Positions 4,601-38,953 of a stretch of DNA of 45,791 nucleotides are shown here, in pieces. Under the pieces are notes generated by a model that saw nothing but the letters and a program-made list of their open reading frames with translations, ran no database searches and was not told the origin of the DNA. How positions within the stretch are numbered: position 1 is the first letter of the stretch; each line of letters begins with the position of its first letter. Position numbers and translations under genes: made by a program. This DNA is from a virus. The stretch lies in the IMG/VR virus record IMGVR_UViG_3300029857_000010. The stretch is one strand, 5' to 3'.

Positions 4601-7600
4601 CATAGCTCTTTCGCTAGGTGAAGTCAAAATATCCTGTGCCATAGCATCGCCGCTGTCATAGCCTAAGCTGTCGGCCACCCAGTCAAACAGTTCTCTCTGC
4701 TCGTTAGACAAGGCACGCTTTTTGCTCATCTCCACAAGGTCGACTTTATCCGGATTAGTTTCAAGCTCATGCTTCAAGGCTTTAAGCTCGTTAAGCTCCG
4801 TAAGTTGTTCACCCTCTACCAACGTTTCGGCAATCTCTTTCAAGCCTTCTTCGCTTTTGAGCTTTGCTCTGTCACCGCCGTTGCGAATGTAGTTTCTCGC
4901 CCAGTTATCCTGCACGTCGCTACCCTCATTCTCATTGACGGTATAACCTTCGACAATCTCTCTTGCCATTTCATAGCCGCTGGCATAGCCGTTTTCCTCT
5001 GCTATCTGGTCAAAGAGTTCTTTTTGCTCCTGCGATAATTGGTTGCGCTTACTTTCTTTTACCAAGTCGACACCTTCGGGGTCTGTTTCAAGTCTATGTT
5101 TCAAGGCTTGCAGTCTGTCCAGCTCATCTACAATATGCTTAAAGTCTGCCTTAATTTCAGCGTCGCCATAATCTAAACCGGTGCTACGCAAATCGTAGTA
5201 ATCCGCTATATCTTCGCCTCTTGCAATCTTTTCAGCAATTCTTCTGCGTCCTTTTTTACTGGTCAAGTCGCTTACGCTGCCGCCGTAGTCATGAACGTAT
5301 CTTGATACCCAGTTGACATTACGAATACTGTCACCTGCTTCATGGAATACAAGGCCTTCAATATCCGCTTGCTCTAAAGCTCGCTTAGTCCAATGACGTT
5401 TTCCGTCCTTGCCTATCTCACCAAAATCAACCAAGACTGCGCTTTGGTCCGGTATGCCTGCAAAGTCATTTGCATACTTGCCTTCTGTTCTGTTTGTTGC
5501 GGCGAAGTAGCCCCACTTGCCATTGATAAAAAACGCACGCTCACTCTTGACTGTATCTTGATATTCCGCAAGCTCACTTTCTATTCTGTTAGCAATCGGA
5601 TTTAAAATATCGTCAATAGCTCCGTTTGTATCTTTTAATAATTCGTTATAGTTTATACGTTCATTGCTATAAATATATTTTCTTGCAAGCCTACGCGGAT
5701 TAGCTTCTATTGTTTCCCATTCGTTGATTTTCTGCTTGAAGTTAGCATGAGCCATGCCGTGCTCATCAACAACAAATGTAGGATTGGTTACAGTTTTTTG
5801 TCGTGACTTGCTAAACATAGCAATCAGCATATCTTCGGCATTTGCAACACGCTCTTTAGAAAGTGTGCCGTATGTGTCGACTTCTGCTTGAAGATACTCA
5901 ACTATCGGATTGAGTATATCGTCAATGCTGGCGTTAGTATCGTTCAGCATATCATTATAGTTTGGCAGTACGCTTCCTAAAACGTGCCTGTACTTTCTTG
6001 CTATAATTGCAGGATTGGCAAGCTTTGTTTTGCGCCATGGAGTATCCGAATTATTAGCATGAGCCATGCCGTGCTCATCGTCTATAAAGTGCGAATCAAC
6101 AACCTTAACTTCCTTACCAAACTCATAACCTACCTGGTGTCTTGCACGATTGACAAGCTCCAATGATACTGCTTCTTCAATCTGCGGCCGTATTTCTTCG
6201 ATGAAAGCAGCCTTTTCAGCTCTGCGCTTTGCGCTGAAATCAGCCATTGCTCGTCTTGTCAGAATATCCACGGCCTTGTCTTTAGCCTTCAAGATTTTAT
6301 CCTGCAAGGCTTTTTTATTTTGGTCTGATAACTTGGATGTTATATTCTCTGGCAAGCCGCCGAACATGCCCTCCATGCGTGCCATAACTTCAATTTCTTC
6401 ACGGCACGCCAACATTCTGTCAAATACTTGCCGTACTTCCGGCGTTAATTCTGCCGCATTTTCGCTTCTTGCTATCTTGCTATAAATAGCTGATAACCAA
6501 TTAGCGAATCTCTGGAACACTCCGCGCAAGCCAACACTAGGCGCTTTGCCTTCCATGATGTAGGTTTCAAATGCTTCTGCCAGCTTTTCATGCCCGGCTC
6601 TCTTTGCTTCAACGTCACCGCTTGCCCATGTTTCAGCATCAATGCCTGCATACTCCATGAGTTTTTTTGCATCAGCATTTAGTCTTGTGTTGCTGGGGTC
6701 TGCCAATGCTTCGTTAATCATGGTTTCCACAAAGTAGTGTCCTGTTTCGTGGATAACTGTACTTGCATCTGCGCCCTTAAAAAGCGTGATAACATAAGTA
6801 CCATCATCCATTGGGGAAATCATGCCTTTATCTTTCAGTGTACCATTGACAATTTTTTGTTGCTTGTAATTATCTGCTTTTTGTGATACACTATTAGCAA
6901 AAGAGGACGTTTTGTTTGAGATACTGGGCTGAGCCTTGAATTGCTCGGAACCCGAGGGCTTGAACGCGTCCTCTATTTTTTTATACTCACTTTCGTTAAA
7001 AACATTATGATTATAATATGATAATGATTTATCATTATGTTCTCTTACTGTAACAACTACATAACGTTTTTCACCATTAACATTCAGTGCAGAATGAATA
7101 TAATAAAAATTCTCGTCTGAATGTTTTTCTTTTTGCGGCGCAGATTCTGTAACGAAATTACCATTCTCCATAATTTCACGTAAATAGCGCAATGCAAAAA
7201 GTTTTTCTTTTTTAGCGGAAGTGTGTTCCATTTTCTTTCTGCCACTTGTGCCAAATTTAATATTATTTTCTTGATACCCTTTATCTATTCTAATATCACC
7301 CAATACACCATTATGAACGCTCGTGCCTTGCAAGTTGTCCCTATACCATGCAAAAGCCTTTTTCTGCAAGCTCTTCAAATCTGAATAGTGTCCCATCTCA
7401 TTTCCGGTAATATTAGTAGTATAGAATTGCTCTTTTTTAAGCACTCCTCCCTTGCTAAACCAGCCATTCTTTTGTTTAGCTTTGCCGCCATCTTCAAAGC
7501 GCAGCTTATTCTTTTGCAGCCACGCAGCAGGATTTTCGGGGTCTGCAATAAGCGCGCGGCTCTCCAATACTAAACGCAAATTACCGGCATGAGATTTATT

Positions 7601-9064
7601 CATACCGGCTTTAGTAGCGCTGCCTACAATAGCGTCAAGTTCTGCATCAAGCTCCGTACTTGCTTGCCTGGTTAAGTTGTAGCCTTCTCGCAGTTCTTTG
7701 CGCGTCTTTGCACCACCGTCCGACAATTCGCCGTTACTGTCAAAATACATATTGTCTTTCGTAGCTTCAAACAATGCATTGTCCTTAGCCATTGCCGCCG
7801 TAAACTTGCCGCGGCTAATATCAATATCCTGCCCCAGCTCCGCCGCAGTTGCCACTTCTTCCGCTGTCACACCTAACTCGTCAAAAAGTTTATTGTTATT
7901 GCTAGTCTGCTTGTAGCCTTCCAAGTCCTGTGCAGATACTGTTACTGTATCGTCCTCAAAGTTAGGATTATTCGCTTCAATTTCAGCCGCCGCACGTTCC
8001 GGGTTAATGCCTGTTTCTTTGATTCGTTCAGCATCCGCTACTAACTTCGCCTTACGTTCTTCGTTAGCTTTTAATGCGACGTGCTCAACAACGCTGTCAA
8101 CTGCAACGCTTACGCCGCTAACACTACCGCCAAGAATAGCACCAATAAGGCCGCTATATCCTGCTTCCTTCAAGTTCTGCTGCCAGTTCTCGCCCCACTT
8201 CTCTGCAAGTTTGGCAGTGCTTGCGCCGGGGTTCTTTGCCCATAAGTCCGTAGCTTGCTCCGGGAATTCCTGCAATGCTTCGGTAACACCTTCTTCAAGG
8301 CCACGTTTGGTAACTTCCCATATCTTAGTTTTCAGTCCGCTACCGGCAGGCATCTTTTTAAGCAGTCTGCCAAGCGGCAGTTCTTCTAATACTGCCTGCG
8401 GGATTGCATTCATCAAGCCAGCCTCCGCTGCTCTGGTTGCGCTTACGCCCTCTTTGCGCAGTCGCAGGTATTGTTCGCCGCTGATGTTTGCACCATTGTA
8501 AAGCATACTGATAGCGTGTACAGTTTTTGCACCTGCACCGGCAGCACCTACACCTTTAGTCAGTGCAAGCTGTACTAAAAGCTGAATGCCGTTTTCAGCC
8601 AAATCATAACCAAGTTGCCCAGCCGCCGTATCAGCCTTAACTTCTTCGCGCTTCAAAATCTCATCGGTGACATAGCCTAAAGCCTTGCTGATGTTCTCTG
8701 ATTGGTCATACTCTTTAACAACATTCTTGTCACCCTTATGAGCTTCAATATTAGCGTCAACGGTCGCTTTAGCCGCACCGAATAAGCCACGCACCGAACC
8801 TTTAAGGCCGTTCATTACGGCAGTGCCTATGCCTGGTTTATCATCGTTGATAATGCTGCTAGTATCAATCGTCGGTGAGCTATTGCTCTGTACTGCCTGC
8901 GAAAACTTATTGTACTCATCGTCGCTCATTTTTTGCAGGTCATAATAGCCTAGAGTTTCAGCAGGTGACAAGCCGCTGTCAATATCAGCAATAAAGCCAT
9001 AATTAGCATATTCCTTTTTTGCTTTTAATCTGCGGTCGAATTCGTCTAAAGGTTCATTAGCCAT
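1628..9064 (-). CDS. giant 2478-aa virion/ejection protein (polyvalent-type) with an HExxH zincin-like metallopeptidase motif and internal tandem duplications; in the position of T7 gp16
   Basis: Single uninterrupted 7.4-kb ORF. HETGH motif at nt 6737-6751. Two pairs of internal repeats, about 5537-5773 vs 5849-6103 and 4616-4798 vs 4940-5122. Start codon abuts the stop of the upstream SLT gene. Confidence 0.75.
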   Translation of the reverse strand: MANEPLDEFDRRLKAKKEYANYGFIADIDSGLSPAETLGYYDLQKMSDDEYNKFSQAVQSNSSPTIDTSSIINDDKPGIGTAVMNGLKGSVRGLFGAAKATVDANIEAHKGDKNVVKEYDQSENISKALGYVTDEILKREEVKADTAAGQLGYDLAENGIQLLVQLALTKGVGAAGAGAKTVHAISMLYNGANISGEQYLRLRKEGVSATRAAEAGLMNAIPQAVLEELPLGRLLKKMPAGSGLKTKIWEVTKRGLEEGVTEALQEFPEQATDLWAKNPGASTAKLAEKWGENWQQNLKEAGYSGLIGAILGGSVSGVSVAVDSVVEHVALKANEERKAKLVADAERIKETGINPERAAAEIEANNPNFEDDTVTVSAQDLEGYKQTSNNNKLFDELGVTAEEVATAAELGQDIDISRGKFTAAMAKDNALFEATKDNMYFDSNGELSDGGAKTRKELREGYNLTRQASTELDAELDAIVGSATKAGMNKSHAGNLRLVLESRALIADPENPAAWLQKNKLRFEDGGKAKQKNGWFSKGGVLKKEQFYTTNITGNEMGHYSDLKSLQKKAFAWYRDNLQGTSVHNGVLGDIRIDKGYQENNIKFGTSGRKKMEHTSAKKEKLFALRYLREIMENGNFVTESAPQKEKHSDENFYYIHSALNVNGEKRYVVVTVREHNDKSLSYYNHNVFNESEYKKIEDAFKPSGSEQFKAQPSISNKTSSFANSVSQKADNYKQQKIVNGTLKDKGMISPMDDGTYVITLFKGADASTVIHETGHYFVETMINEALADPSNTRLNADAKKLMEYAGIDAETWASGDVEAKRAGHEKLAEAFETYIMEGKAPSVGLRGVFQRFANWLSAIYSKIARSENAAELTPEVRQVFDRMLACREEIEVMARMEGMFGGLPENITSKLSDQNKKALQDKILKAKDKAVDILTRRAMADFSAKRRAEKAAFIEEIRPQIEEAVSLELVNRARHQVGYEFGKEVKVVDSHFIDDEHGMAHANNSDTPWRKTKLANPAIIARKYRHVLGSVLPNYNDMLNDTNASIDDILNPIVEYLQAEVDTYGTLSKERVANAEDMLIAMFSKSRQKTVTNPTFVVDEHGMAHANFKQKINEWETIEANPRRLARKYIYSNERINYNELLKDTNGAIDDILNPIANRIESELAEYQDTVKSERAFFINGKWGYFAATNRTEGKYANDFAGIPDQSAVLVDFGEIGKDGKRHWTKRALEQADIEGLVFHEAGDSIRNVNWVSRYVHDYGGSVSDLTSKKGRRRIAEKIARGEDIADYYDLRSTGLDYGDAEIKADFKHIVDELDRLQALKHRLETDPEGVDLVKESKRNQLSQEQKELFDQIAEENGYASGYEMAREIVEGYTVNENEGSDVQDNWARNYIRNGGDRAKLKSEEGLKEIAETLVEGEQLTELNELKALKHELETNPDKVDLVEMSKKRALSNEQRELFDWVADSLGYDSGDAMAQDILTSPSERAMVRQEIDKAVNRRFPDFMQEREQAREAAREALYNDESGEVVALEQQLIDEALNEISDKDIKQKERENIAKVRKQNADNFAKRYIQTLPAGEVMKPRRFAMAERRAAANANKAAKAGLLEEAAMYKQQQMINHALYREAVKAKHQIESARKYVKKQMHSKKEVWGTEQHFFQMCALLERMGYHRKDFNTNGREVQSLSEYIAEMQAKYGDEIISMPEFVLNPNNDLTNAPQLSLANYMDVIDALKNIRAIAKQDTKMNKIAAGEAFEQVKADTIAHLQELPVEYEAEIGSDSKKSLRKRIIDWPKNIIATLRNADNFFLMMDNWTEEGYFTREFYNKINHCADMESTMLESYQNELIDALQKWEPDKKAGIAHDTRIYYEELGGSADKHALIAMLCNLGSDSNAARLCSQKPVGVKNSDIWVEESELIGKEEAMLQTKQNLIEFLCKHLTKADIAYAQARINAASKFWPMLAEVNRRTKGFEPPKIEASPLVLKLASGESVVFEGGYFPLERDTRTGSMPGKFDRIDSTEEGSRPPQRTLTTDTSASKARTGGKYPVDLSRGSEVTAVKKYIHDICYRETMLDFRKILNDEDIYRNMVERLGDTNVRLLREFLQACANPYGSRTAYMAETTFTKIADALRNVATNAAIMFNFKTIMQNTTNIFLYGNSTKGFTHADAFRALLRSFTGEGRAEVDAICAKSAFMRERSRVPDITLRDIQNRSDLNPIEKRTLKYGAMLLGYTDMMTAKPVFAEAYMKKINEGKTEQEALDFANTVIRRTLGSSRIHDVSSMQRNSGLFRLFTMFQGFFNTQFNQWDREAHIVKRLWNSGEKKEMAERLIAFAGAKFLGVCLLNVAMAELSLTAPFEKDKDGYRKLSKELINYPLSMGGPYGQFANIGIQCLLGMKNYGYRLTAAQGLIDKGMTVYRRLGKVARGEEGTGELIEQSAYVGGAFLGVPAGIFNIIFNSIDIAAGDMDFELQDIYKRRPKSERKKD

Positions 9065-21996: not shown

Positions 21997-22350
21997 TTAT
22001 GTTTTGGTAGCATCTTCTGAACAATCGTTTACAACTATCGCATCATCTGCCGCGCCCCAATGATACACGGCCGGCCCCTTGTTGGCGTGCGTCTGCTTGT
22101 CAAACGCGCCTATACTGTCAGCATACATCTTAGACGCTGCTAATCTATCCTTGTTGCTGGCCTTGTTATCAGTCATTATCTTGAGCCAGTAGGCTTGCAG
22201 GTCCTGCACAGCCAGGACGGCTACAGCCGCGCCCTGCTGTTTGAGCAGCGCCGCACAATCCTCTAACGTCTGCGGCGTTGTTGCTATTGCCGGTGGTCTG
22301 CCTCTTGTCGGTGTATTTGTATTAGCTAATAAACTTTTAATCTTAAACAT
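21997..22350 (-). CDS. putative terminase small subunit, 117 aa
   Basis: Small ORF immediately upstream of TerL on the same strand. The N-terminal TRGRPP motif suggests DNA binding. The weak SD makes the start uncertain (the track's longer start is at 22437). Confidence 0.4.
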   Translation of the reverse strand: MFKIKSLLANTNTPTRGRPPAIATTPQTLEDCAALLKQQGAAVAVLAVQDLQAYWLKIMTDNKASNKDRLAASKMYADSIGAFDKQTHANKGPAVYHWGAADDAIVVNDCSEDATKT

Positions 22351-22637
22351 TTCCGTCACATTCTCGTTACAATCTCTGTAACTGTATATACAATTAATAT
22401 TATTAATAATGACAATCAGTAAACAATACATTAACAATACATATTGAAAAGATAATCATTATTTACCAGAAAAAGACAATAAAAAAATGATTAACAGAAT
22501 CCATCTGTCAATCATCAATTAAATTATATTTATTATCTTGCTATAAATTATATACCCTAAAAAATGCTATTAAGTCAATGACACATTATTATTTTTTTGT
22601 GAACTGTCTTAACATATTATAAATGTTGCTGAATAAA

Positions 22638-22680
22638 GAAGAACGGCCGCCGCTGAACATCTGCCAGCGTGCGGCCGTTG
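22638..22680 (-). terminator. stem-loop downstream of the HTH gene, a putative terminator
   Basis: Inverted repeat AACGGCCGC…GCGGCCGTT followed by T-rich sequence on the minus strand. Confidence 0.4.
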
Positions 22681-22699
22681 CTACTCTTATAATGTTGTT

Positions 22700-22960
22700 T
22701 TAACCCTCTGCATCATCTGCGGGGCTGCCGTCATCTGCTGGCGGCGCGGGGAACGTCAGAACGGCGCGCCCGGCATCATCTACAAACGCCAGGCGAACGC
22801 CGCAGGCCTGCGCTATCCTGGTTAAATCCTGCGCGGTAAAGCTGCCGCGGTTATATTTGTTGCTCAATGCCTGCGGCGTGCTAAGGCCTAGCGCCTGCGC
22901 CAAATCCGCGCGGCTCAATCCTGCGAGCTGCACGGCCGCCTTGATAATTGGTGTAATCAT
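22700..22960 (-). CDS. XRE-family HTH DNA-binding protein, 86 aa, a candidate regulator of the divergent promoter region
   Basis: HTH signature GLSRADLAQALGLSTPQALSNKYNRG. Strong SD AAAGGAGG upstream. Confidence 0.65.
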   Translation of the reverse strand: MITPIIKAAVQLAGLSRADLAQALGLSTPQALSNKYNRGSFTAQDLTRIAQACGVRLAFVDDAGRAVLTFPAPPADDGSPADDAEG

Positions 22961-22989
22961 GTTTTTAGCCTCCTTTTTTGCTTATCTAC

Positions 22990-23018
22990 ATTATATAACC
23001 ATAGCCGCAAAAAATCAA
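22990..23018 (-). promoter_or_regulatory. sigma-A-type promoter for the HTH gene (TTGATT-17-TATAAT on the minus strand)
   Basis: -10 at complement(22990..22995), -35 at complement(23013..23018), 17-nt spacer. Confidence 0.5.
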
Positions 23019-23051
23019 ATCAAAAAAGTTAAAAAATAATCAAAAAAGGTA

Positions 23052-23080
23052 TTGACAAGCTAATCAAAGGCGTTTATAAT
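23052..23080 (+). promoter_or_regulatory. perfect-consensus sigma-A promoter (TTGACA-17-TATAAT) driving the plus-strand accessory operon
   Basis: TTGACA at 23052-23057, TATAAT at 23075-23080, exact 17-nt spacer. Repeated (T)AATCAAA elements at about 23013, 23037, 23061 and 23103. Confidence 0.7.
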
Positions 23081-23142
23081 ATACTCAACAAAGCAAATAA
23101 ACTAATCAAAACCGAAATTGCTACATTTAGGAGGAACTAAAA

Positions 23143-23364
23143 ATGGCTACACAAAAAGAACAAACACAAGACGCTAAAATGATTCAGTTGGCGCTTTACC
23201 GTGAATACGGCTTCCAGCCGTGCTTGAAGGACATCGAAATTCTGGAAAGCGTCGAAAACCCGGACTTCCCCTGGCATCTTGAAAGGGCCTACGTTGAAAT
23301 CAAAGGCCACTTTTACACCATCTATCAAAACGAATTTGGCGGGTTGACCGTACAAAAATATTAA
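23143..23364 (+). CDS. hypothetical protein, 73 aa
   Basis: First ORF of the operon, SD TAGGAGGA. Confidence 0.55.
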   Translation: MATQKEQTQDAKMIQLALYREYGFQPCLKDIEILESVENPDFPWHLERAYVEIKGHFYTIYQNEFGGLTVQKY

Positions 23365-23452
23365 AGCTGACGGCGGCCCCGTTGGGGGCCGTAAAGCTGC
23401 CAGGCAGAAGGTCCGAAGCCCTAGCCAACAGCCGAAAGGAGAGAATAAGAAA

Positions 23453-24397
23453 ATGACTTTTGAAAAGTATAATGCGAACCCCGAAAATAAGAATATCGGT
23501 GATTGCTCAATTAGAGCTATCTGCACGGCAACCCCGTTAACCTACCAGCAGGCTAAAAAGCTGCTGGAAACAAAGGTATTTGAAAGCGGCGCTGCATGGA
23601 ACACCGTGAAGAACATCACCGCCGCCCTGGCTGACCTGGGAATTGAAGTTAAAGCCGCCAGCCGCGAAACAGTCAACAGCTTTACAAAGCATTGCGATAC
23701 CGGCGCCAGCTACGTTGTTTTTGTAGCAAAGCACGCCGTAGCCGTTGTTAATGGCGTTATCTATGATACATGGGACAGCAGCCGCCGTTTTGTAAAGCTG
23801 GTTGCCAAAGTCAGCCGTGAAAAATTTGACGAATTGAAAGCCAAATACAACCCGGAACCTAAAAAGGAGGAAAAGAAAATGGACTGGAAAAAGATTTTTG
23901 CCGCTTGCGAAACAATCGAGGAACTGAAAAAGGCGTTTAAAAAAGCCTGCATGACTTGCCACCCCGACAAGGGAGGCACGGCCGCCGAATTTAAGGCAAT
24001 GAGCGCAGCGCACGACAAGCGCGCCGCCGAACTTGCCGAAAGTGAAAGCCGCCAGGAGTGGCAGCGCAACAAGAAAGCGGACGGCACTTATAAAACAGCC
24101 GCCGAAATCCTGGCCGAACAGGCGGAATTTGCCGAAATCCTGGCCGTGCTGATGGGCTTGAAGGGCCTTGAAATTGAAATCTGCGGCAGCTGGTTATGGA
24201 TAGGCGGCGAAACGAAAGAGAACAAAGACGCCTTGAAAGGCGCCGGCTGCCGTTGGGCCAGCAAGAAAAAATTATGGTATTGGCATGCTGGCGAATGGGT
24301 GAAGAAGGTCCGCCGCGCGTTGACCATGGACGAAATCCGCGACCTGCACGGCAGCGAGTTGTTGAAATACCGCCCGGAAACGCCCTTGTTACAATAG
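23453..24397 (+). CDS. J-domain (DnaJ-like, HPD motif) protein with an N-terminal putative Cys/His peptidase-like domain, 314 aa
   Basis: J-domain signature IEELKKAFKKACMTCHPDKGGTAAEFKAMSAAHDKRA, with the HPD codons at 23960-23968. N-terminus has …NIGDCSIRAI… and …KHAVAVVNGVIYDTWD…. An in-frame internal SD AAAGGAGG plus ATG lies at 23862-23881. Confidence 0.65.
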   Translation: MTFEKYNANPENKNIGDCSIRAICTATPLTYQQAKKLLETKVFESGAAWNTVKNITAALADLGIEVKAASRETVNSFTKHCDTGASYVVFVAKHAVAVVNGVIYDTWDSSRRFVKLVAKVSREKFDELKAKYNPEPKKEEKKMDWKKIFAACETIEELKKAFKKACMTCHPDKGGTAAEFKAMSAAHDKRAAELAESESRQEWQRNKKADGTYKTAAEILAEQAEFAEILAVLMGLKGLEIEICGSWLWIGGETKENKDALKGAGCRWASKKKLWYWHAGEWVKKVRRALTMDEIRDLHGSELLKYRPETPLLQ

Positions 24398-24478
24398 CCG
24401 AAACGCCGCCCCGTGCGGCGTATACCGGGGACCGGCCGCCCCGGTACTGATGAGGCAGGCCAAAGGAAGGAGATAAGA

Positions 24479-24709
24479 ATGAAAATAGCTATTATAAGCA
24501 AATTGACACCCGAGCATCCGGCGTGGAAGCACGGGAAGCGCTTAGACGTAAAAATCTTTACGCAGCTTTACCCCGGCGGCCCGCAATATTATTGCGGAAA
24601 CGGCAAATATTGTGAAGATATGGAAGCGGTAAAAGCTTTTATCGCAGAAGAAGCGCCGGACAAAATCAGCGACGAAAGGACAATAGGAGGCTTGAAAAAT
24701 GAAGCGTGA
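24479..24709 (+). CDS. hypothetical protein, 76 aa
   Basis: ORF with SD AAGGAAGGAG. The track's longer start at 24413 has no SD. Confidence 0.5.
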   Translation: MKIAIISKLTPEHPAWKHGKRLDVKIFTQLYPGGPQYYCGNGKYCEDMEAVKAFIAEEAPDKISDERTIGGLKNEA

Positions 24710-24878
24710 AGAAGCGTTAAAATTGTTGCTGAAGATTGAAGAATTCCGGCAGCAACCGGCAATGCATAAGGCGGAACATGATTTTACGTGTCGCATTATC
24801 GCCGCTATGGTTGCGGAAGCAGGCGGCTTTAAAAGCCGGAACGAATGGACCGCAGAAATCAAGGAGGCTTTAAAGTGA
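24699..24878 (+). CDS. small hypothetical protein, 59 aa
   Basis: ATG with SD AGGAGG 8 nt upstream. Overlaps the upstream gene by 11 nt. Below the ORF-track size cutoff. Confidence 0.4.
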   Translation: MKREEALKLLLKIEEFRQQPAMHKAEHDFTCRIIAAMVAEAGGFKSRNEWTAEIKEALK

Positions 24879-25030
24879 AGCGAAAAGAGCGCAAACATCA
24901 ATATTTAAAGCTTGCCAAATCTTTACGCAGTTTGTCACACGCTAAAGGCGGCGTTAAAAAATTAACATACGCCCAGCAGTGCGCGTATTGGGACAGCGTG
25001 AGCTTGCTATATTTGTTCAATCTTTTGTAA
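24875..25030 (+). CDS. small basic hypothetical protein, 51 aa, GTG start
   Basis: GTG preceded by AAGGAGG (24861-24867). Overlaps the previous stop. Confidence 0.3.
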   Translation: MKRKERKHQYLKLAKSLRSLSHAKGGVKKLTYAQQCAYWDSVSLLYLFNLL

Positions 25031-25110
25031 AGGACCCACTACACCGGCAGGAATGCCGCTGCCGGTGTAGAATATTAAAGGCAGAAGCGATTTTTTAGGA
25101 GGAATTAACC

Positions 25111-25620
25111 ATGTTGAAAGAAGTTAAAAACAACGTTTATAACGCCCTTTTTGTAGCCGCCGATGAAGAAGGCCAGCGCTACGCCGCTTTTGAATCCGAC
25201 TGGAACGGCGAATATTGGGAAGCGACCGCCTGCACGGAAAGCGGCGAGCTTATCAAAGGCGAAACCACTAAGCTTTACCCCGTTCACGTTTACCACGCTG
25301 GAACCGACGAATACGAAGAAGTGGGCTACGATGAAGAAGCGCCCCGCGTTCTGCTGCCTGGCTGGCGCGACTACCAGAAGTGCGGCTATAACGAAAGCTA
25401 TTCCCTGGCCCCCGTCGCTTACAGTGAAGCGAGTGACCGCGTTTACATGATGCTGCCGGAAGGCGCTAGCGTTTACGCTGATGACGCAGGCTGCCCGGTG
25501 ATTGATTTTGACGGCTTTAAACAAGCCGACGTAATTAACCAATATGACGGCAGCAGCTGCCGCCCGTATATCATCGGCAATGACCGCCGCCGCGCATATC
25601 TGGAAGTTGTCGAACTATAA
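25111..25620 (+). CDS. acidic hypothetical protein, 169 aa
   Basis: SD TAGGAGGA. Strongly acidic composition. CRPYI motif shared with the 26068 gene. Confidence 0.55.
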   Translation: MLKEVKNNVYNALFVAADEEGQRYAAFESDWNGEYWEATACTESGELIKGETTKLYPVHVYHAGTDEYEEVGYDEEAPRVLLPGWRDYQKCGYNESYSLAPVAYSEASDRVYMMLPEGASVYADDAGCPVIDFDGFKQADVINQYDGSSCRPYIIGNDRRRAYLEVVEL

Positions 25621-25674
25621 CCCCGAATCACCCGCCCGGCGCAAGCCGGGCTATTATCGAAAGGAAGCGAAAAC

Positions 25675-26055
25675 ATGAAAAATTTTGTCGGCTTGAAAGC
25701 CGAAATCAAAAAGCAGAAAGCTATCCGCGCCCGGCTTGACAATGAGCGCGGCCGCCAAACTGTTAATTGGAAAGCCGCAACTTTTCGCCTGGCGTTGCTG
25801 AACCATTGGAAGCGTCAAGGCGTAGGGCTGCCGGACAACTACAGACAGCTTTGGAACCCGCCCACTAATTGGACCGCGCGCACGTTGAAAGAACGCACGC
25901 CGCTGCACGTTTGGGAAGTTGACGCATTGCGCGCGGGATTGGTTGCAGAAGCGTGCAAAAAATTTAAAAACGCAACGTCCCCGCTTATTCGTTGGATGAT
26001 AAGAGATGAGCTGGCGGCAAAAGTTACCGAATTGTACCGCCGCCCGGTATTTTAA
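25675..26055 (+). CDS. basic Trp-rich hypothetical protein, 126 aa
   Basis: ORF with SD AAAGGAAG. Confidence 0.5.
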   Translation: MKNFVGLKAEIKKQKAIRARLDNERGRQTVNWKAATFRLALLNHWKRQGVGLPDNYRQLWNPPTNWTARTLKERTPLHVWEVDALRAGLVAEACKKFKNATSPLIRWMIRDELAAKVTELYRRPVF

Positions 26056-26067
26056 GGAGGAAGAATA

Positions 26068-26436
26068 ATGGAAACTAAAACCTTTTACGCACTGAAAAGA
26101 AATGCTATCTGGCTGCCGCGCCGCAACCACGGCAAGGACTACAAAACCTACACCCCGTTAATCAGCCTGGAAGCGCAGGATGATTGTGAGCCCGTCGAGC
26201 TACAGCGCAGCGAAAGCCTGGAAGAACTCAAAACTGTTTTGAACAGCGACGCTTGCCGCCCCTACATCGACAACAAGAGCGGCAGCGATACTCTCTATGT
26301 AGAATACTACGTAGAGGAAGCGGAATACACCCGTGACGATGAAAGCGAGGACTGGGAGTTTTCCGCCGGTTCGATGTACTATGAGCGTGAAGCGGATAAC
26401 ACGCCGATGAGCGACAGGAAGAAGGCTAGTTTATGA
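26068..26436 (+). CDS. acidic hypothetical protein, 122 aa
   Basis: SD TAAGGAGGAAG. Acidic composition. CRPYI motif. Confidence 0.55.
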   Translation: METKTFYALKRNAIWLPRRNHGKDYKTYTPLISLEAQDDCEPVELQRSESLEELKTVLNSDACRPYIDNKSGSDTLYVEYYVEEAEYTRDDESEDWEFSAGSMYYEREADNTPMSDRKKASL

Positions 26437-26654
26437 AAGAGAAAAAAATGTGTAAATTAAAAATCGTGGGACTGGCGGAAAGAGAACGCCGCTTGTTTAA
26501 AATGTACCTTTATGAAATCGGGTACACGCTAGAAGATGTTGGGACTATTGAGGCCGTGCGGGAAGTGGAAGTTAAAAAGCTCAAAAAGTTTGTTGAACTT
26601 CTGAACGGCAACATCGAAATTTTAGACACATGGGAAGTTGCCAACTATTTCTAA
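26433..26654 (+). CDS. hypothetical protein, 73 aa
   Basis: ATGA start/stop overlap with the upstream gene. Last gene before the terminator. Confidence 0.5.
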   Translation: MKEKKMCKLKIVGLAERERRLFKMYLYEIGYTLEDVGTIEAVREVEVKKLKKFVELLNGNIEILDTWEVANYF

Positions 26655-26660
26655 AACACA

Positions 26661-26691
26661 AGCCCCAGGGCAAACGCCCTGGGGCTTTTCT
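26661..26691 (+). terminator. rho-independent terminator of the plus-strand operon
   Basis: Perfect 10-bp stem AGCCCCAGGG/CCCTGGGGCT, 6-nt loop, then a TTTTCT run. Confidence 0.75.
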
Positions 26692-26722
26692 ATATCCTGC
26701 AAACGTGAGCAGGCTATATATT

Positions 26723-26751
26723 TTTGAAGTCGAAATGTTTTACAGGTATAA
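26723..26751 (+). promoter_or_regulatory. orphan sigma-A-type promoter (TTGAAG-17-TATAAT)
   Basis: -35 at 26723-26728, -10 at 26746-26751, 17-nt spacer. No ORF with an SD downstream before the terminator. Confidence 0.5.
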
Positions 26752-26757
26752 TCACTA

Positions 26758-26850
26758 GGGCTGCCATGATTGGAATGCGTGGCGGCCCTTTTCCGTGCGT
26801 GCAGCGCATACTTTAGGGAAGCAAAAAGCCCGGCAGCGCCGGGCTTTTCT
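26758..26850 (+). ncRNA. candidate small noncoding RNA of about 90 nt (promoter to intrinsic terminator, no ORF)
   Basis: Bounded by the promoter at 26723-26751 and the terminator hairpin at 26826-26846. Only a 16-codon ORF lacking an SD. Confidence 0.35.
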
Positions 26851-26962
26851 TTTGGTGCGATTTTGTAAAGAAAATCAACAATATTTCAATCCGTGCCAGC
26901 TTTACGCCTTTAGAGCTGAACCGACAAGCACAATACTCAAAAGGCGCTTGCGCTTATCGACA
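26822..26962 (-). ncRNA. candidate small noncoding RNA of about 140 nt on the minus strand
   Basis: Minus-strand promoter TTGCTA-17-TATAAT (complement 26968..26996) reads into the bidirectional terminator. No ATG-initiated ORF. Confidence 0.3.
26826..26850. terminator. bidirectional rho-independent terminator
   Basis: 9-bp stem AAGCCCGGC/GCCGGGCTT with a 3-nt loop, flanked by an A-run upstream and a T-run downstream. Confidence 0.7.
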
Positions 26963-26967
26963 AGGCT

Positions 26968-26996
26968 ATTATACCACGGTACCAAACCAATAGCAA
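26968..26996 (-). promoter_or_regulatory. orphan sigma-A-type promoter on the minus strand
   Basis: -10 TATAAT at complement(26968..26973), -35 TTGCTA at complement(26991..26996). Confidence 0.4.
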
Positions 26997-27040
26997 GCGT
27001 TTTCTTAACGCGTGGAAGCGACAGCACCGCGCGCCTGCCT

Positions 27041-27541
27041 TTACTTTTCTTGCTTCTGTTCTGCCCTGGCCTTTTGGAAGCTGTTGGCGTTTATGTCAAT
27101 CCGTAATAGTCCTTCTTGAATCGCCAGCATGAGTAGGCCGTCAATGAATGAGCGGCGTCGAAGCGCGTACACCTGCGGGCTAATCTCATCCATAACGGAG
27201 ATTTTGCAGACCGTCCAATGGTATACATACCGGTGCTGAATCGCCTTATAAGACTTGTCACCAAACCGCTGCCGAAACAGAAGAAGCGAACGCTCCATAA
27301 CATCCAGCCATTTTTCCGGCTGGTAAACCAAAAACGCCTGCCCAAGATAAATACACCGGACCGCAGCAAGCGGCGTAACAGCTTGAATCGCAAGGCGTGC
27401 CGTAGAATCGCCGCCGGTCCTCATATCAAATTCCAAGCGTTCCGCCCTCTGCTGCATCCTGGCGGAAACAACCGCTTTACCAATCGCATTTTTGGCAAAG
27501 AACAAACTCTCTGCGTGGTCTGCTGCTTCTGCGTAATCCAT
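27041..27541 (-). CDS. hypothetical protein, 166 aa
   Basis: ORF 5 nt downstream of the SSB stop. Last gene of the early minus-strand block. Confidence 0.45.
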   Translation of the reverse strand: MDYAEAADHAESLFFAKNAIGKAVVSARMQQRAERLEFDMRTGGDSTARLAIQAVTPLAAVRCIYLGQAFLVYQPEKWLDVMERSLLLFRQRFGDKSYKAIQHRYVYHWTVCKISVMDEISPQVYALRRRSFIDGLLMLAIQEGLLRIDINANSFQKARAEQKQEK

Positions 27542-27546
27542 TTTCT

Positions 27547-27933
27547 TTACCAGTCCACATCATCGAGCGGGTCTTTCCGTTCCTCTTTCGGAGGATACGG
27601 CGCTGTGTTTTCCGCAATCCGGACACATTCCAAATGCTCCATCAGCAAGTAGCTTGCTTTAGAATTTTTGCCGTTCCTATCCACGTATAAATCAGTCTGA
27701 AAGCGGCCGCCCACAATAACTTGCGAGCCTTTTGTAACAAAATTGCTGATATATTTAATCAGTCCAGGCACAAAGCAGCGGCAAGAAATGTAATCGTAAA
27801 CGCGCTTATTATCTTTATCCCGATATTGGCGCGCACACTGTATTTCCAAAGTGCACACCTCTTTGCCGTTCTTCATAACTTTTGCATCCGGTTCAAATTT
27901 CACCCAGCCAAGTATCAAACAATTATTCAACAT
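27547..27933 (-). CDS. ssb: single-stranded DNA-binding protein
   Basis: OB-fold SSB N-terminal pattern (…LILGWVKFEPD…) and an acidic C-terminal tail DPLDDVDW. Confidence 0.7.
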   Translation of the reverse strand: MLNNCLILGWVKFEPDAKVMKNGKEVCTLEIQCARQYRDKDNKRVYDYISCRCFVPGLIKYISNFVTKGSQVIVGGRFQTDLYVDRNGKNSKASYLLMEHLECVRIAENTAPYPPKEERKDPLDDVDW

Positions 27934-36054: not shown

Positions 36055-36420
36055 ATGAAAGAGCGTTTAAAGCTATTGCGCAAAGCTTTAAAACTAAATC
36101 AACAGGAGTTTGCGGATAAAATTCAGGTCAATCGTTCTACCGTTGCTGGTTATGAACGCGGCTCAACGAATTTATCAGAGCGAACAATCACAGACATCTG
36201 CCGTGTATTTTACGTTAATGAAGATTGGCTACGTACTGGCGAAGGTGAAATGTTCCGTGCCAGGAATACAACCAACGAAGAATTAGCACTGCAAGTTGGC
36301 AAACTGCTAAAGACAGATGATGAGTTTACCAAGAATCTATTTTTGGAATATCTCAAACTGCCGCCCGAAATGAAAACTTTATTTGAAGATTTCGTTCACA
36401 ATCTGGCGAAAAGCAAATAA
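36055..36420 (+). CDS. CI-like XRE-family repressor, 121 aa
   Basis: HTH NQQEFADKIQVNRSTVAGYERG. Transcribed divergently from the early operon and adjacent to the integrase. Confidence 0.65.
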   Translation: MKERLKLLRKALKLNQQEFADKIQVNRSTVAGYERGSTNLSERTITDICRVFYVNEDWLRTGEGEMFRARNTTNEELALQVGKLLKTDDEFTKNLFLEYLKLPPEMKTLFEDFVHNLAKSK

Positions 36421-36430
36421 CCGGCAAATA

Positions 36431-36470
36431 AAAAAATCCCCCGTACCATCCGCGGTACGGGGGATTTTGC
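36431..36470. terminator. bidirectional rho-independent terminator
   Basis: 12-bp stem ATCCCCCGTACC/GGTACGGGGGAT flanked by an A-run and a T-run. Confidence 0.7.
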
Positions 36471-36783
36471 TATACCTTTTAAATTAGTGCAGCAAATAAA
36501 AAATCAATCTTCGTCTACAAGTCCAAGGATAAAGCTGTATATGACAGCCAGCGTTTCTTCATCTTTCACTTCCTGCAATATACCGATTATCCTACTCAAT
36601 AAAACCTGCATTATGCCCTCCATTCAAATTAAAGCAGGCCTACAACACTAAGAACCTATTTATATTCTACCACTAAACTCGCTCATTATAAAGAGTTTTA
36701 GGAAAAGTAATTATTTGAATTGCAGTTTACATTTAAATGTGCTATTATTAAATCAAATAAAGACAGAAAGTGAGGTGGTTAAC

Positions 36784-36879
36784 ATGGTTGACAGTGACAC
36801 TATAAGCCTACAGATTAAGAACCTCTATCAAACAATTTTCGCTGTGCCATTGGCGCAAGGCGTGACATGGGCAGTCTAA
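36784..36879 (+). CDS. 31-aa small peptide ORF with its own SD
   Basis: SD GTGAGGTGG 5 nt before the ATG. Followed directly by a terminator. Confidence 0.3.
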   Translation: MVDSDTISLQIKNLYQTIFAVPLAQGVTWAV

Positions 36880-36900
36880 AAAGCTGCCCATTATTTTTTT
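36869..36900 (+). terminator. rho-independent terminator
   Basis: Stem GGGCAG…CTGCCC followed by attattttttttatt. Confidence 0.6.
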
Positions 36901-36924
36901 TATTACAAAGGAGAGTGCTTGTAA

Positions 36925-37511
36925 TGAGATTTAATCCAATAGAGTTTTTCTATGAGTTGCTTAACGGAAATCCTTATCTTATTGGTGTGCTAATCTTTAC
37001 CGTGTGTATATCTCTTATTCCTAATTCGTTATGCGAAACTATATTAGAACTGCCCCAAAAAATAAAAAAGATGTTTGCAAAGAAGCCTGTTGATGCACCA
37101 ATTCAACAGGTCAACCAAAATTACGACTTCGTTCCGTCTGACGATAATTATTTTACTTTCAAAGGCAGAATAGGAAGAAAAGTTTTTATTAAAAGAACCG
37201 CTTTTGCATATTTAGGAATTATTCTGGTAGCGTTATTCTTTGCATGGTTGACAGATTCAACAAGTAAAATAGAAAAAAATCCTCTATATATCGCATTAAT
37301 ACTTGCCTTTATGGTTCCGTTTACCCTCTTCTTATACGCCAATATGAACAGACGCTTTCATGATATTGGCAAAAGCTCAAACTGGACATTGGCAATGTTC
37401 CTTGCAAGTAATACTGTTGCGCCGATTTATTTTCTTGCACTGCTTTATTTATTTTGCAAAAAAGGTAATCCCGACGCAAACGAATATGGCCCAAATCCAT
37501 TGCAGCAATAA
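36925..37511 (+). CDS. DUF805-family inner-membrane protein (moron between repressor and integrase), 195 aa
   Basis: DUF805 signatures GRIGRKVFIKRTAF…, NRRFHDIGKSSNWTL and GNPDANEYGPNP. SD AAAGGAGAG. The track's longer start at 36867 lacks an SD. Confidence 0.65.
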
Positions 37512-37532
37512 GCAACGATATTTTCAAACAAA

Positions 37533-37582
37533 AACAACAATAGCCCACGCCGTACACGTGAGCTATTGTTGCTGTTGTTTTT
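37533..37582 (+). terminator. rho-independent terminator after the DUF805 gene
   Basis: About 12-bp stem AACAACAATAGC/GCTATTGTTGCT followed by GTTTTTG. Confidence 0.6.
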
Positions 37583-37933
37583 GCCGAACCGTAAACACAA
37601 TTTTGAAAGGAGGTTGTTTAGCATAAAGAATCTGAACACATGAAAACCTAGAAAAAAGGAGAGCTAAGGAAAATCAAGATTGCATCTTCATTTCAACACC
37701 CCGAAAAAATGAAGGTACTATAGTGCTTGTATCAGTGTTCGCGGAAACTGCGCCGTCTACTGCGCCTACACCGGACCGCACAGCCGCCCCGAACACCTAC
37801 TTATATTATATCATGATAATATGTTTAATTTGTGAATAATAACTTCATATAAACGCTTGAAAGAATTAATACACAGTTTATCCACAACTGTTGCAAAAAA
37901 TGCAACAACTGAAAAAGGAAGGAGCAACTAAAC

Positions 37934-38953
37934 ATGAAATTACCTAACGGCTATGGCTCTGTTACGAAGCTGACCGGGAACCGGCGGCGGCCGTATATGG
38001 TCCGCATTACAACGGGCTTTACCGATGAAGGTCGCCAGCTTATGAAAATACTAGGCTACTATGCAAAGCGCACGGAAGCCCTTAATGCCCTGGCTGAATA
38101 CAATCAATCACCCTATGATGTTGAAAGCGTAGGCTTGACGTTTGCCCAGGTACACGAGAGATGGGAAGCCGCAACCTACGTTGACGGCAAAGAGCAATCT
38201 AACCAATATAAGGCAGCATATAAGCGCTGCGCGCCACTATGGGATATACCGTTCAAAGATATTAAGACTGCGCAATTTCAGCAAGTCATAAATGACTGCG
38301 ACAAAGGCTACGCTACCAAGAAGGCAATCCGAATCGTATGTAATCTGATGGCCAAATATGCGCTTGCTAATGATATTATAGTAAAAAATTATGTTGAGCT
38401 TACTAGCCTACCGCCCCAGGTTGAAAGCAGAATACACAATCCGCTTACTAAAAAGGAGCTTGCTATATTATGGGAAAACAGCAAGGATATAAAAGTGCAA
38501 GCCGTGCTTATCCTCTGTTATACCGGCATGCGCCCCACCGAGCTAGTGAAGGTTGAGAAGGCGAACGTCGACTTTGAAAATAAATTCTTCGTTGGCGGCA
38601 TGAAAACTGCGGCAGGCCGCGGCAGAAGAATTCCTATTGCTGATAAAATATTCGACTTCTTCAAGGATGCTTGTGAACGCAGCACCGGCGAATATATCTT
38701 TTCTGATGAACGGGGCAAGAATATATCCTATGACGCATACCGCAGCAGATATTGGGAACCGGTAATGAATATGTTTAAGATGGACCACTTGCCCGGTGAC
38801 GGCCGCCACACTTGCGCAAGCCTGCTTGATGATAAAGACGTAAATGTAAAAATCAAGAAGCTAATTCTGGGGCACGCCAGCTCCGATGTAACGGAAAGGG
38901 TTTACACTCATAAGACGTTGGAACAACTATTAGAGGCTATAAATTTAATATAG
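37934..38953 (+). CDS. int: tyrosine recombinase / integrase with AP2-like arm-binding N-terminus
   Basis: N-terminus MKLPNGYGSVTKLTGNRRRPYMVRIT is the AP2-like arm-binding domain signature. Catalytic region has TGMRPTEL and LGHASSDVTERVYTH (H-x-x-R…Y). Confidence 0.8.
   Translation: MKLPNGYGSVTKLTGNRRRPYMVRITTGFTDEGRQLMKILGYYAKRTEALNALAEYNQSPYDVESVGLTFAQVHERWEAATYVDGKEQSNQYKAAYKRCAPLWDIPFKDIKTAQFQQVINDCDKGYATKKAIRIVCNLMAKYALANDIIVKNYVELTSLPPQVESRIHNPLTKKELAILWENSKDIKVQAVLILCYTGMRPTELVKVEKANVDFENKFFVGGMKTAAGRGRRIPIADKIFDFFKDACERSTGEYIFSDERGKNISYDAYRSRYWEPVMNMFKMDHLPGDGRHTCASLLDDKDVNVKIKKLILGHASSDVTERVYTHKTLEQLLEAINLI

Follow-up and report, generated by a model that had tools for sequence, protein, structure and literature searches.

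The IMG/VR virus record IMGVR_UViG_3300029857_000010 (45,791 nucleotides [nt]; this whole stretch is called the window below) contains, at positions 23143-26654, a block of nine plus-strand genes in which the gene for a J-domain protein is bracketed by two predicted self-cleaving ribozymes of different classes, a type-P5 twister upstream and a type II hammerhead downstream. We consider it reasonably likely that the block is an autonomous accessory operon, that its transcript is punctuated by ribozymes and that its products interact with the host. A preliminary description of the block, prepared without database searches, had concluded that nothing in it matched a described system. All of the elements named in that description were recovered, at or near the positions given there, and the four GC-rich hairpins it listed within the operon are all present; however, two of the four belong to Twister-P5 and Hammerhead_II ribozymes, in an arrangement described by Perreault et al. 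in 2011 (PMC3088659), and the conclusion therefore no longer holds. The view of the block as an oppositely oriented, self-contained accessory unit distinct from the phage housekeeping genes is upheld both by its anatomy and by its relatives.

The whole 45.8-kb window was scanned with Rfam (Rfam 15) at gathering thresholds, and only two matches were returned, both on the coding strand and both in intergenic gaps of the operon. Relatives (designated by L numbers) were gathered with the J-domain protein as probe, yielding 57 IMG/VR loci and two genome loci, and further relatives without the J gene were found by probing with the flanking early gene, which encodes a protein of 166 amino acids (aa). 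The first match is a type-P5 twister ribozyme at 23365-23423 on the plus strand (RF02684; 47.9 bits against a gathering threshold of 37.6, E = 5e-7 for the whole window), which starts right after the TAA stop codon of gene 1 and whose stem P1 is the first of the four hairpins. The match spans model positions 1 to 58 of 58, the conserved UAA, GC and GGUCC.AAGCCC nucleotides are present, and cleavage is predicted between U23392 and A23393 (GCCGU^AAAG), at the U-A step 5' of P2. Across eight distinct variants of the twister, 92.6% of cells were paired and 9 of the 17 pairs showed compensatory changes, among them pairs 8:55 (CG/UA) and 13:53 (GC/AU) of the tertiary pseudoknot T1; P2 does not vary and therefore says nothing about covariation. 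This covariation score was reached by none of 500 shuffles, and slid controls collapsed. Rfam scores of the twister in relatives ranged from 43.5 to 54.2 bits, and a twister-P5 was also found upstream of stand-alone J genes with no more than 56-63% identity (L060, L061/62), in L060 downstream of a gene 1 homologue with 57% identity. A chimeric twister was observed in L020 (7920-7975): one variant supplied P1 and the 5' strand of T1, and the other supplied P4 and the 3' strand. It has one C:A mismatch in T1 and still scores 45.9 bits.

The second match is a type II hammerhead ribozyme at 24396-24464 on the plus strand (RF02276; 51.8 bits against a gathering threshold of 37, E = 6.8e-8 for the whole window), which spans model positions 1 to 66 of 66 and overlaps the TAG stop codon of gene 2, the J gene. 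Its core is intact (CUGAUGA at 24447-24453, GAAA at 24400-24403 and a GUA triplet ending at 24422). Stems III and I are hairpins, which together correspond to the second hairpin of the preliminary description, and the open stem II is formed by GCC at 24397-24399 with GGC at 24454-24456. The GGCC of loop I (24434-24437) could pair with a GGCC in the tail (24458-24461); such a pseudoknot between loop I and the 3' tail is a hallmark of type II hammerheads (PMC3088659), and it lengthens to 5 bp (UGGCC/GGCCA) in relatives with the loop GACUGGCCGC. Cleavage is predicted between A24422 and U24423 (GCGGCGUA^UACC). A U7-to-C variant occurs in L041-43, at a core position known to be variable. Every close relative scanned with Rfam carries the same twister and hammerhead on either side of its J gene, and a pattern search located the twister in 48 of the 59 loci and a hammerhead after the J gene in 52 of the 59. 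In the distant phage L061, a hammerhead-like sequence (4363-4446; GAAAC, GUC, CUGAUGA followed by an extra A, and GGC, in that order, with a GGCC pseudoknot) lies after a small gene next to the J gene, and its stems I and III covary fully with those of the hammerhead in the window. It received no Rfam score even at E = 0.5, probably because of the extra A after CUGAUGA, and we regard it as a probable hammerhead only.

Four junctions in the operon exceed 50 nt and structured RNA was found at each: the two ribozymes occupy the first two, and the remaining hairpins of the preliminary description, here elements 3 and 4, the others. Element 3 (25039-25096, plus strand) consists of a 12-bp hairpin (25039-25050/25059-25070) followed by a conserved A/U-rich 3' flank, AAUAUUAAAGGCAGAAGCGAUUUUUU; its minimum free energy (MFE) is -25.8 kcal/mol (z = -3.7, 0 of 200 shuffles), 98.9% of cells pair, and three compensatory pairs were counted, all from one lineage. 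Within that flank, GGCAGAAGCGA is not clustered and was ruled out as a repeated motif, having one exact copy in the window. Element 4 (25634-25651, plus strand) is a 7-bp GC hairpin, GCCCGGC-GCAA-GCCGGGC (25634-25640/25645-25651; z = -2.1), in which 98.2% of cells pair, with one compensatory pair and four one-sided G.U changes that preserve pairing only in plus-strand RNA. Both elements are ~95% conserved even where both neighboring genes have been replaced, and their substitutions are either compensatory or G.U wobbles that keep the pairs only as plus-strand RNA; the support from covariation is thin. Neither matched an Rfam family at E ≤ 10 in a search of 22900-27100 that included pistol, hatchet, twister-sister, Drum and HDV-like ribozymes. 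Among relatives, element 3 has loops of 9 to 12 nt, and the loop of element 4 is either GCAA or its reverse complement UUGC; loops that vary in this way speak against a catalytic fold, and the two are most likely plain RNA stem-loops that serve as processing or stability determinants for host RNases. Plain hairpins also mark distant phages that have an equivalent operon without recognizable ribozymes: Rfam returned no ribozymes for the distant J-gene loci L063, L064, L066 and L067, and a strong plain hairpin occurs at every junction of such operons.

The operon has its own promoter and terminator, both noted in the preliminary description and both borne out. The sigma-70 consensus promoter (TTGACA at 23052-23057, a 17-nt spacer and TATAAT at 23075-23080, plus strand) agrees with the consensus at all 12 of 12 positions and is the sole perfect match within 22000-27600. 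The intrinsic terminator (26660-26691, plus strand; bidirectional stem) consists of a 12-bp stem at 26660-26687, with nine GC pairs, and a U-run; its MFE is -26.5 kcal/mol (z = -7.2), and it is kept at the operon end in most relatives. Divergently from the operon, a gene at 22700-22960 on the minus strand encodes an 86-aa helix-turn-helix (HTH) protein of the Cro/CI type (PF01381 HTH_3, 24.7 bits against a cut-off of 23; PF07022 Phage_CI_repr, 21.2 bits; PHROG families annotated as transcriptional repressor), and a small HTH homologue occupies the same divergent position in the distant phage L061. Candidate operator repeats, TAATCAAA, lie at 23037-23044, at 23061-23068 within the promoter spacer and at 23103-23110, so that three of the four copies in the window fall inside 74 bp around the promoter, where they may be bound by this protein. 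Among relatives the HTH gene occurs as at least four alleles (~100, 89, 55 and 40% identity) between flanks that are 90-99% identical, and with the other alleles TAATCAAA is replaced by ACTCAA/TTGAGT, by TAATCAA plus extra palindromes or by TATAGYC-type repeats; TTGACA-17-TATAAT is kept in all four well-sampled allele groups, with occasional one-base variants. Because the repeats around the promoter covary with the HTH allele, the HTH protein is the probable cognate repressor of the operon promoter, and the allele swap looks like an immunity-type swap of specificity.

On this evidence the operon would most likely work as follows. The consensus promoter would drive a single transcript of ~3.6 kb that ends at the intrinsic terminator, and the divergent HTH protein probably clamps that promoter. 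Self-cleavage at 23392/23393 and 24422/24423 would then divide the transcript into three pieces: a gene 1 mRNA that would end in the hairpin of twister stem P1 and carry a 2',3'-cyclic phosphate; a monocistronic J mRNA of 1030 nt with a 5'-OH and the hammerhead stem III hairpin at its 3' terminus; and an RNA covering genes 3 to 9, which would have a 5'-OH and open with the hairpin of stem I, shortly before the ribosome-binding site of gene 3. Elements 3 and 4 would serve as host-RNase processing or stability determinants at the remaining junctions. The net effect would be to uncouple stability and translation between modules that share one strong promoter. In the early mRNAs of phage T7, host RNase III serves the same end. 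The products would act as host-interaction factors, with the J protein recruiting host DnaK and the others being small, fast-evolving ORFans.

The J domain is the only recognizable protein domain among the nine products, which agrees with the J-domain fusion and the unknowns of the preliminary description; the other products are lineage-restricted ORFans. Gene 2 (23453-24397, plus strand; 314 aa) consists of a papain-like N-terminal domain (~1-130), a J domain (~145-200) and a beta-rich C-terminal domain (~236-305), and matches phrog_15863 over its full length and phrog_3754 with its N-terminal part. The HPD motif (H170/P171/D172) is invariant in 38 homologues, most of which have a precomputed PF00226 match; the family profile matches the J domains of DnaJ, T-antigen and Sis1 in PDB (1e-9 to 1e-7), and in the AlphaFold2 model (predicted local distance difference test score [pLDDT] 85) helices 155-168 and 177-200 stand around the HPD. 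Since the HPD J domain is intact, the protein should recruit host DnaK. In the C-terminal domain, C244, G245, W249, G252, T254 and K272 are invariant. The N-terminal domain (window positions 23453-23850) is fused to a J domain only in this clade; it strongly matches widespread, uncharacterized phage proteins of 120-150 aa (phrog_3754; BFVD TM-scores up to 0.81) and has weak but consistent matches to C39 peptidase, Josephin, staphopain and OspI. Together with conserved Cys18, His100 and Asp112/115, these matches are suggestive of a papain fold. A core of ~175 aa, made up of the J domain and the C-terminal domain, is widespread among phages, and in four of the four distantly related phage groups examined it occupies the same counter-oriented slot adjoining the terminase genes, with the other flank on the minus strand in three groups (L060, L061 and L063/L064). 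Equivalent operons of distant phages include a Dam-like methyltransferase with DUF4942 and a DarA_C protein.

Several observations were made in these distant loci. The methyltransferase with DUF4942 is encoded in the operon of L066, which has a Schlafen/AlbA_2 ATPase gene nearby and a run of GTCAGTAGTT-type tandem repeats at 2288-2400, upstream of its J-gene operon. Downstream of the equivalent operon in L061 (5946-6532), approximately seven copies of AUAG(A)GGCAAA, five of them exactly ATAGAGGCAAA, lie among terminator-like hairpins, and one further copy follows the last intergenic hairpin. An early-operon protein of L060 (6689-6892) has an Acb2/Tad1 hairpin domain (PF24729), a known family of anti-CBASS and anti-Thoeris sponges; counter-defense genes therefore exist in this phage group outside the plus-strand operon.

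The accessory nature of the operon is evident from its relatives, in which its genes are interchangeable one by one and some of which lack most of it. Clustering of the open reading frames (ORFs) of all loci gave a fixed order of slots, each with alternative, unrelated cassettes. Slot 1 holds gene 1, with or without a gene for 43 aa, and then the twister; slot 2 holds the J gene and then the hammerhead; slot 3 holds genes 3, 4 and 5, or else a protein of 211 or 168 aa together with one of 67 aa, and then element 3; slot 4 holds gene 6 or a 191-aa protein and then element 4; and slot 5 holds gene 7, a 71-aa protein, or gene 8 with or without gene 9, and then the terminator. Endpoints of homology blocks fell within 30 nt of a gene boundary in 316 of 358 cases, against an expected 23%. 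Breakpoints are equally common at boundaries without structured RNA, which argues that the ribozymes are not special recombination sites, and each ribozyme co-occurs with its upstream gene across loci. Neither L087 nor L118 has gene 1, the twister or the J gene, and both keep the HTH gene; in L087 (3757-5520, scanned with Rfam) neither ribozyme was found, and element 3, the 191-aa gene and a gene 8 homologue remain. In L076 (7498-8681) there is only a remnant of the J gene within 1.2 kb between the flanking genes, and across relatives the 166-aa early gene and the small terminase gene are 1.2 to 5.4 kb apart. Since L087, L118 and L076 are without most of the operon, it is dispensable and accessory. 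With a promoter and terminator of its own and content that varies among close relatives, it has the properties of an accessory cassette.

An anti-defense or host-takeover role is plausible: the strong promoter, its cognate small HTH protein, the small, acidic, exchanged ORFans and the J domain would all suit it, and manipulation of the host seems the most likely function. A prophage-expressed "moron" or defense island, switched on in the lysogen and blocking other phages by superinfection exclusion or abortive infection, with ribozymes that merely tune expression, is in our view unlikely. It would account for the promoter and terminator, for an orientation opposite to all lytic genes, for a locus that is present, absent or differently filled in close relatives and for a GC content slightly above that of the flanks (0.52 versus ~0.46). 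However, PADLOC 2.0 gave no meaningful match for any of the nine products (the best, E ~1e-3, covered partial stretches of the J protein only, and a signature protein was absent), most products are shorter than 130 aa and lack the enzymatic domains typical of defense effectors, and a cognate HTH repressor at a consensus promoter suggests that the operon is normally off rather than constitutive. The distant equivalents, moreover, carry genes of counter-defense type (the Dam-like methyltransferase with DUF4942 and DarA_C) and not defense genes.

The co-occurrence of each ribozyme with its upstream gene also admits a more speculative reading, to which we assign little probability: each exchangeable cassette may carry a private RNA that forms its 3' end, the phage ribozymes being cassette-linked "self-terminating" tags. 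The twister would belong to the gene 1 cassette, the hammerhead to the J gene, element 3 to w5/F1 and element 4 to w6/F7. If true, such tags would shield gene expression from new neighbors after recombination and would explain why twister and hammerhead share gene neighborhoods. Element 3 (and, less likely, element 4) could then be a new self-cleaving or RNase-directing motif, and the 1030-nt J mRNA, with its 5'-OH and 2',3'-cyclic phosphate, would be a natural substrate for ligation (circularization) by RtcB.

It is quite improbable that the locus is a secondary immunity region like immI of P22, in which the small HTH protein would act like Mnt and one of the genes would encode an antirepressor that inactivates the main prophage repressor, encoded at 36055-36417. 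The divergent small repressor gene facing a consensus promoter, the exchange of repressor and operator-like sequences together as alleles, in the manner of immunity specificities, and head, connector and tail genes of podovirus type would all fit such a region. Against this, none of the nine products matched an antirepressor family (Ant, KilA/KilAC, Bro or other) in Pfam or PHROGs, and what follows the promoter is highly variable and offers no conserved antirepressor candidate, even the J gene being missing in L087 and L118. That the structured elements are decayed ribozyme relics or palindromes, conserved only as DNA linkers at points of cassette recombination, is very improbable, for although homology breakpoints pile up at them (23361, 24464, 25034, 25113, 25611 and ~25665-25681), relatives have the element 4 loop either way round, which would be a DNA-level inversion, and the chimeric twister of L020 has its T1 mismatch, breakpoints are equally frequent at gene boundaries without an element (~24690, 24880, 26055 and 26430), all catalytic-core positions of both ribozymes are intact with scores 10-15 bits above gathering in dozens of variants, compensatory changes extend to the tertiary pseudoknot of the twister, and the G.U changes of elements 3 and 4 are compatible with pairing only in coding-strand RNA.

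Several points weigh against a ribozyme-punctuated accessory operon directed at the host. All of the processing steps are predictions from sequence. The MFE z-scores of the twister and the hammerhead are unremarkable (-1.6 and -0.7); such values are expected for pseudoknotted ribozymes, yet they lend no independent support. Six relatives have a full-length J gene and no twister because gene 1 is absent or replaced, and in these six the J gene either comes first or follows a different small gene after a 14-nt gap; a cut upstream is therefore not required for expression of the J protein. Gene 2 itself scored 24.0 bits against PF00226 (DnaJ), below the cut-off of 27.8, and no product matched an anti-defense or host-takeover protein in Pfam or PHROGs except by way of the J domain. 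Where RNase J is present, moreover, a 5'-OH can destabilize the downstream RNA, as it does for glmS in Bacillus. The cleaved glmS mRNA is degraded by cellular RNases (2019 review, PMC6765202). As RNase J may degrade RNA with a 5'-OH, the effect of cleavage on expression could have either sign.

Early (class I) mRNAs of phage T7 are cut by host RNase III at intergenic stem-loops. The comparison with T7 class I genes made in the preliminary description may fit better than its author realized: in both cases a polycistron under one strong promoter, with genes for host takeover (a putative role here), would be divided at stem-loops between its genes, leaving individual mRNAs with a hairpin at the 3' end, although T7 relies on a host enzyme at every junction, whereas two junctions here are predicted to cut themselves, leaving a 5'-OH and a 2',3'-cyclic phosphate. 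Strong promoters under a small cognate HTH repressor are also found in Aca-type HTH-controlled anti-defense operons and in P22 immI (mnt / P_ant). The operon resembles these in its strong promoter and small HTH protein, its small, acidic, rapidly exchanged ORFans and its location at a module boundary; unlike them, it has no homologue of Acr, Ard, Ocr or Ant that was detected with Pfam or PHROGs, and its regulator is divergent rather than the last gene of the operon, with a repressor role suggested by the covariation of alleles and repeats.

The closest precedent for the ribozymes is found in prophages, in which hammerheads flank single genes or short gene blocks whose identities vary (Perreault et al. 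2011, PMC3088659). Examples include Clostridium scindens, Azorhizobium caulinodans and the surroundings of ardA in Agrobacterium tumefaciens; such clusters were shown to cleave themselves both in vitro and in E. coli, and their suggested role was to process long phage transcripts (PMC3088659). As in those clusters, a type II hammerhead is found on the coding strand between genes of a prophage polycistron, one gene is enclosed by ribozymes, the neighboring genes are not constant, and the role proposed is the cutting of a long transcript into mRNAs of gene or operon length. Unlike in those clusters, two ribozyme classes share the bracket, with a twister upstream and a hammerhead downstream, the gene inside it encodes a J-domain fusion, plain hairpins occupy the other junctions and an HTH-promoter module is attached. 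Twister was itself recognized as a ribozyme through gene neighborhoods that it shares with hammerheads (Roth et al. 2014), and the same neighborhoods were later mined to yield twister-sister, pistol and hatchet (Weinberg et al. 2015; summarized in PMC6765202 and PMC4604425). Consistent with this association, the twister of the window lies within ~1 kb of a hammerhead among phage genes. As an RNA it does not differ from published twister-P5 (RF02684), with a full-length match, covariation in P1, P4 and T1 and an invariant P2, and elements 3 and 4 match no ribozyme-associated motif in Rfam 15.

The only characterized J protein of a phage is Rki of the T4-like phage RB43, a J-domain protein shown to be functional and to act on DnaK (Perrody et al. 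2012, PMC3486835). Like Rki, gene 2 encodes a phage ORFan with a J domain and HPD motif that would be expected to work through host DnaK/Hsp70; unlike Rki, to which it has no sequence relationship outside the J domain, it adds a papain-like N-terminal and a conserved C-terminal domain and belongs to the phage family with the ~175-aa core.

Prophage ribozymes that flank variable genes have been known since 2011-2015 and their function is still unexplained. According to a 2019 review, the roles of bacterial twister and hammerhead ribozymes are largely elusive and the reason for their shared gene associations is undetermined (PMC6765202), and among the papers searched no later one was found that resolves these associations. 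What is new here is that the bracket around a J-domain gene mixes twister and hammerhead, that other junctions of the transcript carry plain hairpins, that each ribozyme is linked to the cassette upstream of it and that the regulator comes in four alleles. The locus offers a compact natural test bed for the function of bacterial twister and hammerhead ribozymes: it combines one strong promoter, two ribozyme classes around one recognizable gene and plain-hairpin junctions as an internal comparison, and ~60 natural variants, some without the twister or the whole J module, make the question testable. It also documents a widespread phage J-domain family in one counter-oriented slot and a four-allele HTH/operator module over a conserved promoter.

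All nine plus-strand ORFs are preceded by a Shine-Dalgarno motif. Gene 1 (23143-23364; 73 aa, isoelectric point [pI] 5.0) has the Shine-Dalgarno sequence AGGAGG and gave no match in Pfam or PHROGs. Gene 3 (24479-24709; 76 aa; Shine-Dalgarno sequence GGAAGGAG) likewise matched no Pfam or PHROG family and overlaps gene 4 (24699-24878; 59 aa) by 11 nt. The GTG start codon of gene 5 (24875-25030; 51 aa, basic, pI 10.2) overlaps the gene 4 stop codon (GTGA), and gene 9 (26433-26654; 73 aa) overlaps gene 8 (26068-26436; 122 aa, acidic, pI 4.5) through ATGA. These overlaps of 11, 4 and 4 nt (genes 3/4, 4/5 and 8/9) agree with the translational coupling proposed in the preliminary description, just as the pI values agree with its two acidic products (genes 6 and 8) and its basic small proteins (genes 5 and 7). 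Gene 6 (25111-25620; 169 aa, acidic, pI 4.3) is a fast-diverging, lineage-restricted ORFan with homologues of 63-98% identity that have no Pfam domain, and its AlphaFold2 model (pLDDT 55) was too low in confidence for a fold search. Gene 7 (25675-26055) encodes a basic protein of 126 aa (pI 10.8). The sole Pfam trace for gene 9 is a sub-threshold match to Sigma70_r4 (E = 0.02). Searches of the nine products and of ten alternative cassettes of relatives with Pfam, PHROGs and PADLOC returned only the J domain and unnamed PHROGs.

The window is the genome of a temperate tailed phage according to PHROG scans, by which the following genes were identified. The minus strand carries tail, major head, portal and large terminase genes (~1.6-21.8 kb) as well as those for SSB, RusA, an HNH endonuclease, a DnaD-like replisome organizer, RecT and RecE (27.5-34 kb), and the plus strand carries a repressor-like HTH gene and a tyrosine integrase gene (36.1-39.0 kb). 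The operon therefore stands, as first described, between packaging and replication modules, both on the minus strand: to its left are the small and large terminase, portal and capsid genes, and to its right those for SSB, RusA, DnaD-like protein, RecT and RecE. It would thus sit between the end of a leftward early/replication operon and a leftward packaging/late operon. AT and GC skew flip sign only across 23-27 kb, consistent with plus-strand coding there. The block is the only long one on the plus strand in the lytic half, as had been stated; a second plus-strand block (36055-38953; repressor-like gene and integrase) is found in the lysogeny region. An integron cassette array was also considered and rejected, because the junctions hold two ribozymes and two short perfect hairpins and no IntI gene is adjacent; the sole integrase is a phage-type tyrosine integrase (37934-38950) 11 kb away, and no search aimed at attC was made.

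A copy of the J gene with 95% identity occurs in Phascolarctobacterium succinatutens CAG:287, and this species is the sole organism named among gene 6 homologues, the others being metagenomic; on these grounds the host is a Negativicute of the human gut and the phage, whose head, connector and tail genes are of podovirus type, is a temperate, podovirus-like Phascolarctobacterium phage. Phages of this host, an abundant anaerobe of the human gut, have been little studied. Megablast against GenBank phages gave zero DNA matches, and the best tblastn matches (27-31% identity) were to J-domain genes of Enterococcus and Fusobacterium phages.

Elsewhere in the window, one ORF of 2478 aa (1628-9064, minus strand) lies at the distal end of the structural module and is followed by a 699-aa protein with endolysin-family matches. 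An AT-rich spacer of 260 bp (22438-22699) upstream of the small terminase gene contains several weak sites resembling promoters, along with a hairpin of 13 bp at 22486-22516 and a second, GC-rich one at 22642-22679 that is probably the terminator of the HTH gene; the spacer is likely a late-promoter or packaging-site region. The stretch that separates the operon terminator from the end of the leftward early operon holds a candidate small RNA (26724-26858, plus strand; MFE -51.1 kcal/mol, z = -3.5, 0 of 200 shuffles), for which there was no Rfam match. It consists of a promoter-like TTGAAG-17-TATAAT (26724-26752), a putative transcript of ~100 nt and an intrinsic terminator of its own (26824-26848), and its promoter-like sequence and body recur in L060 with a different terminator stem.

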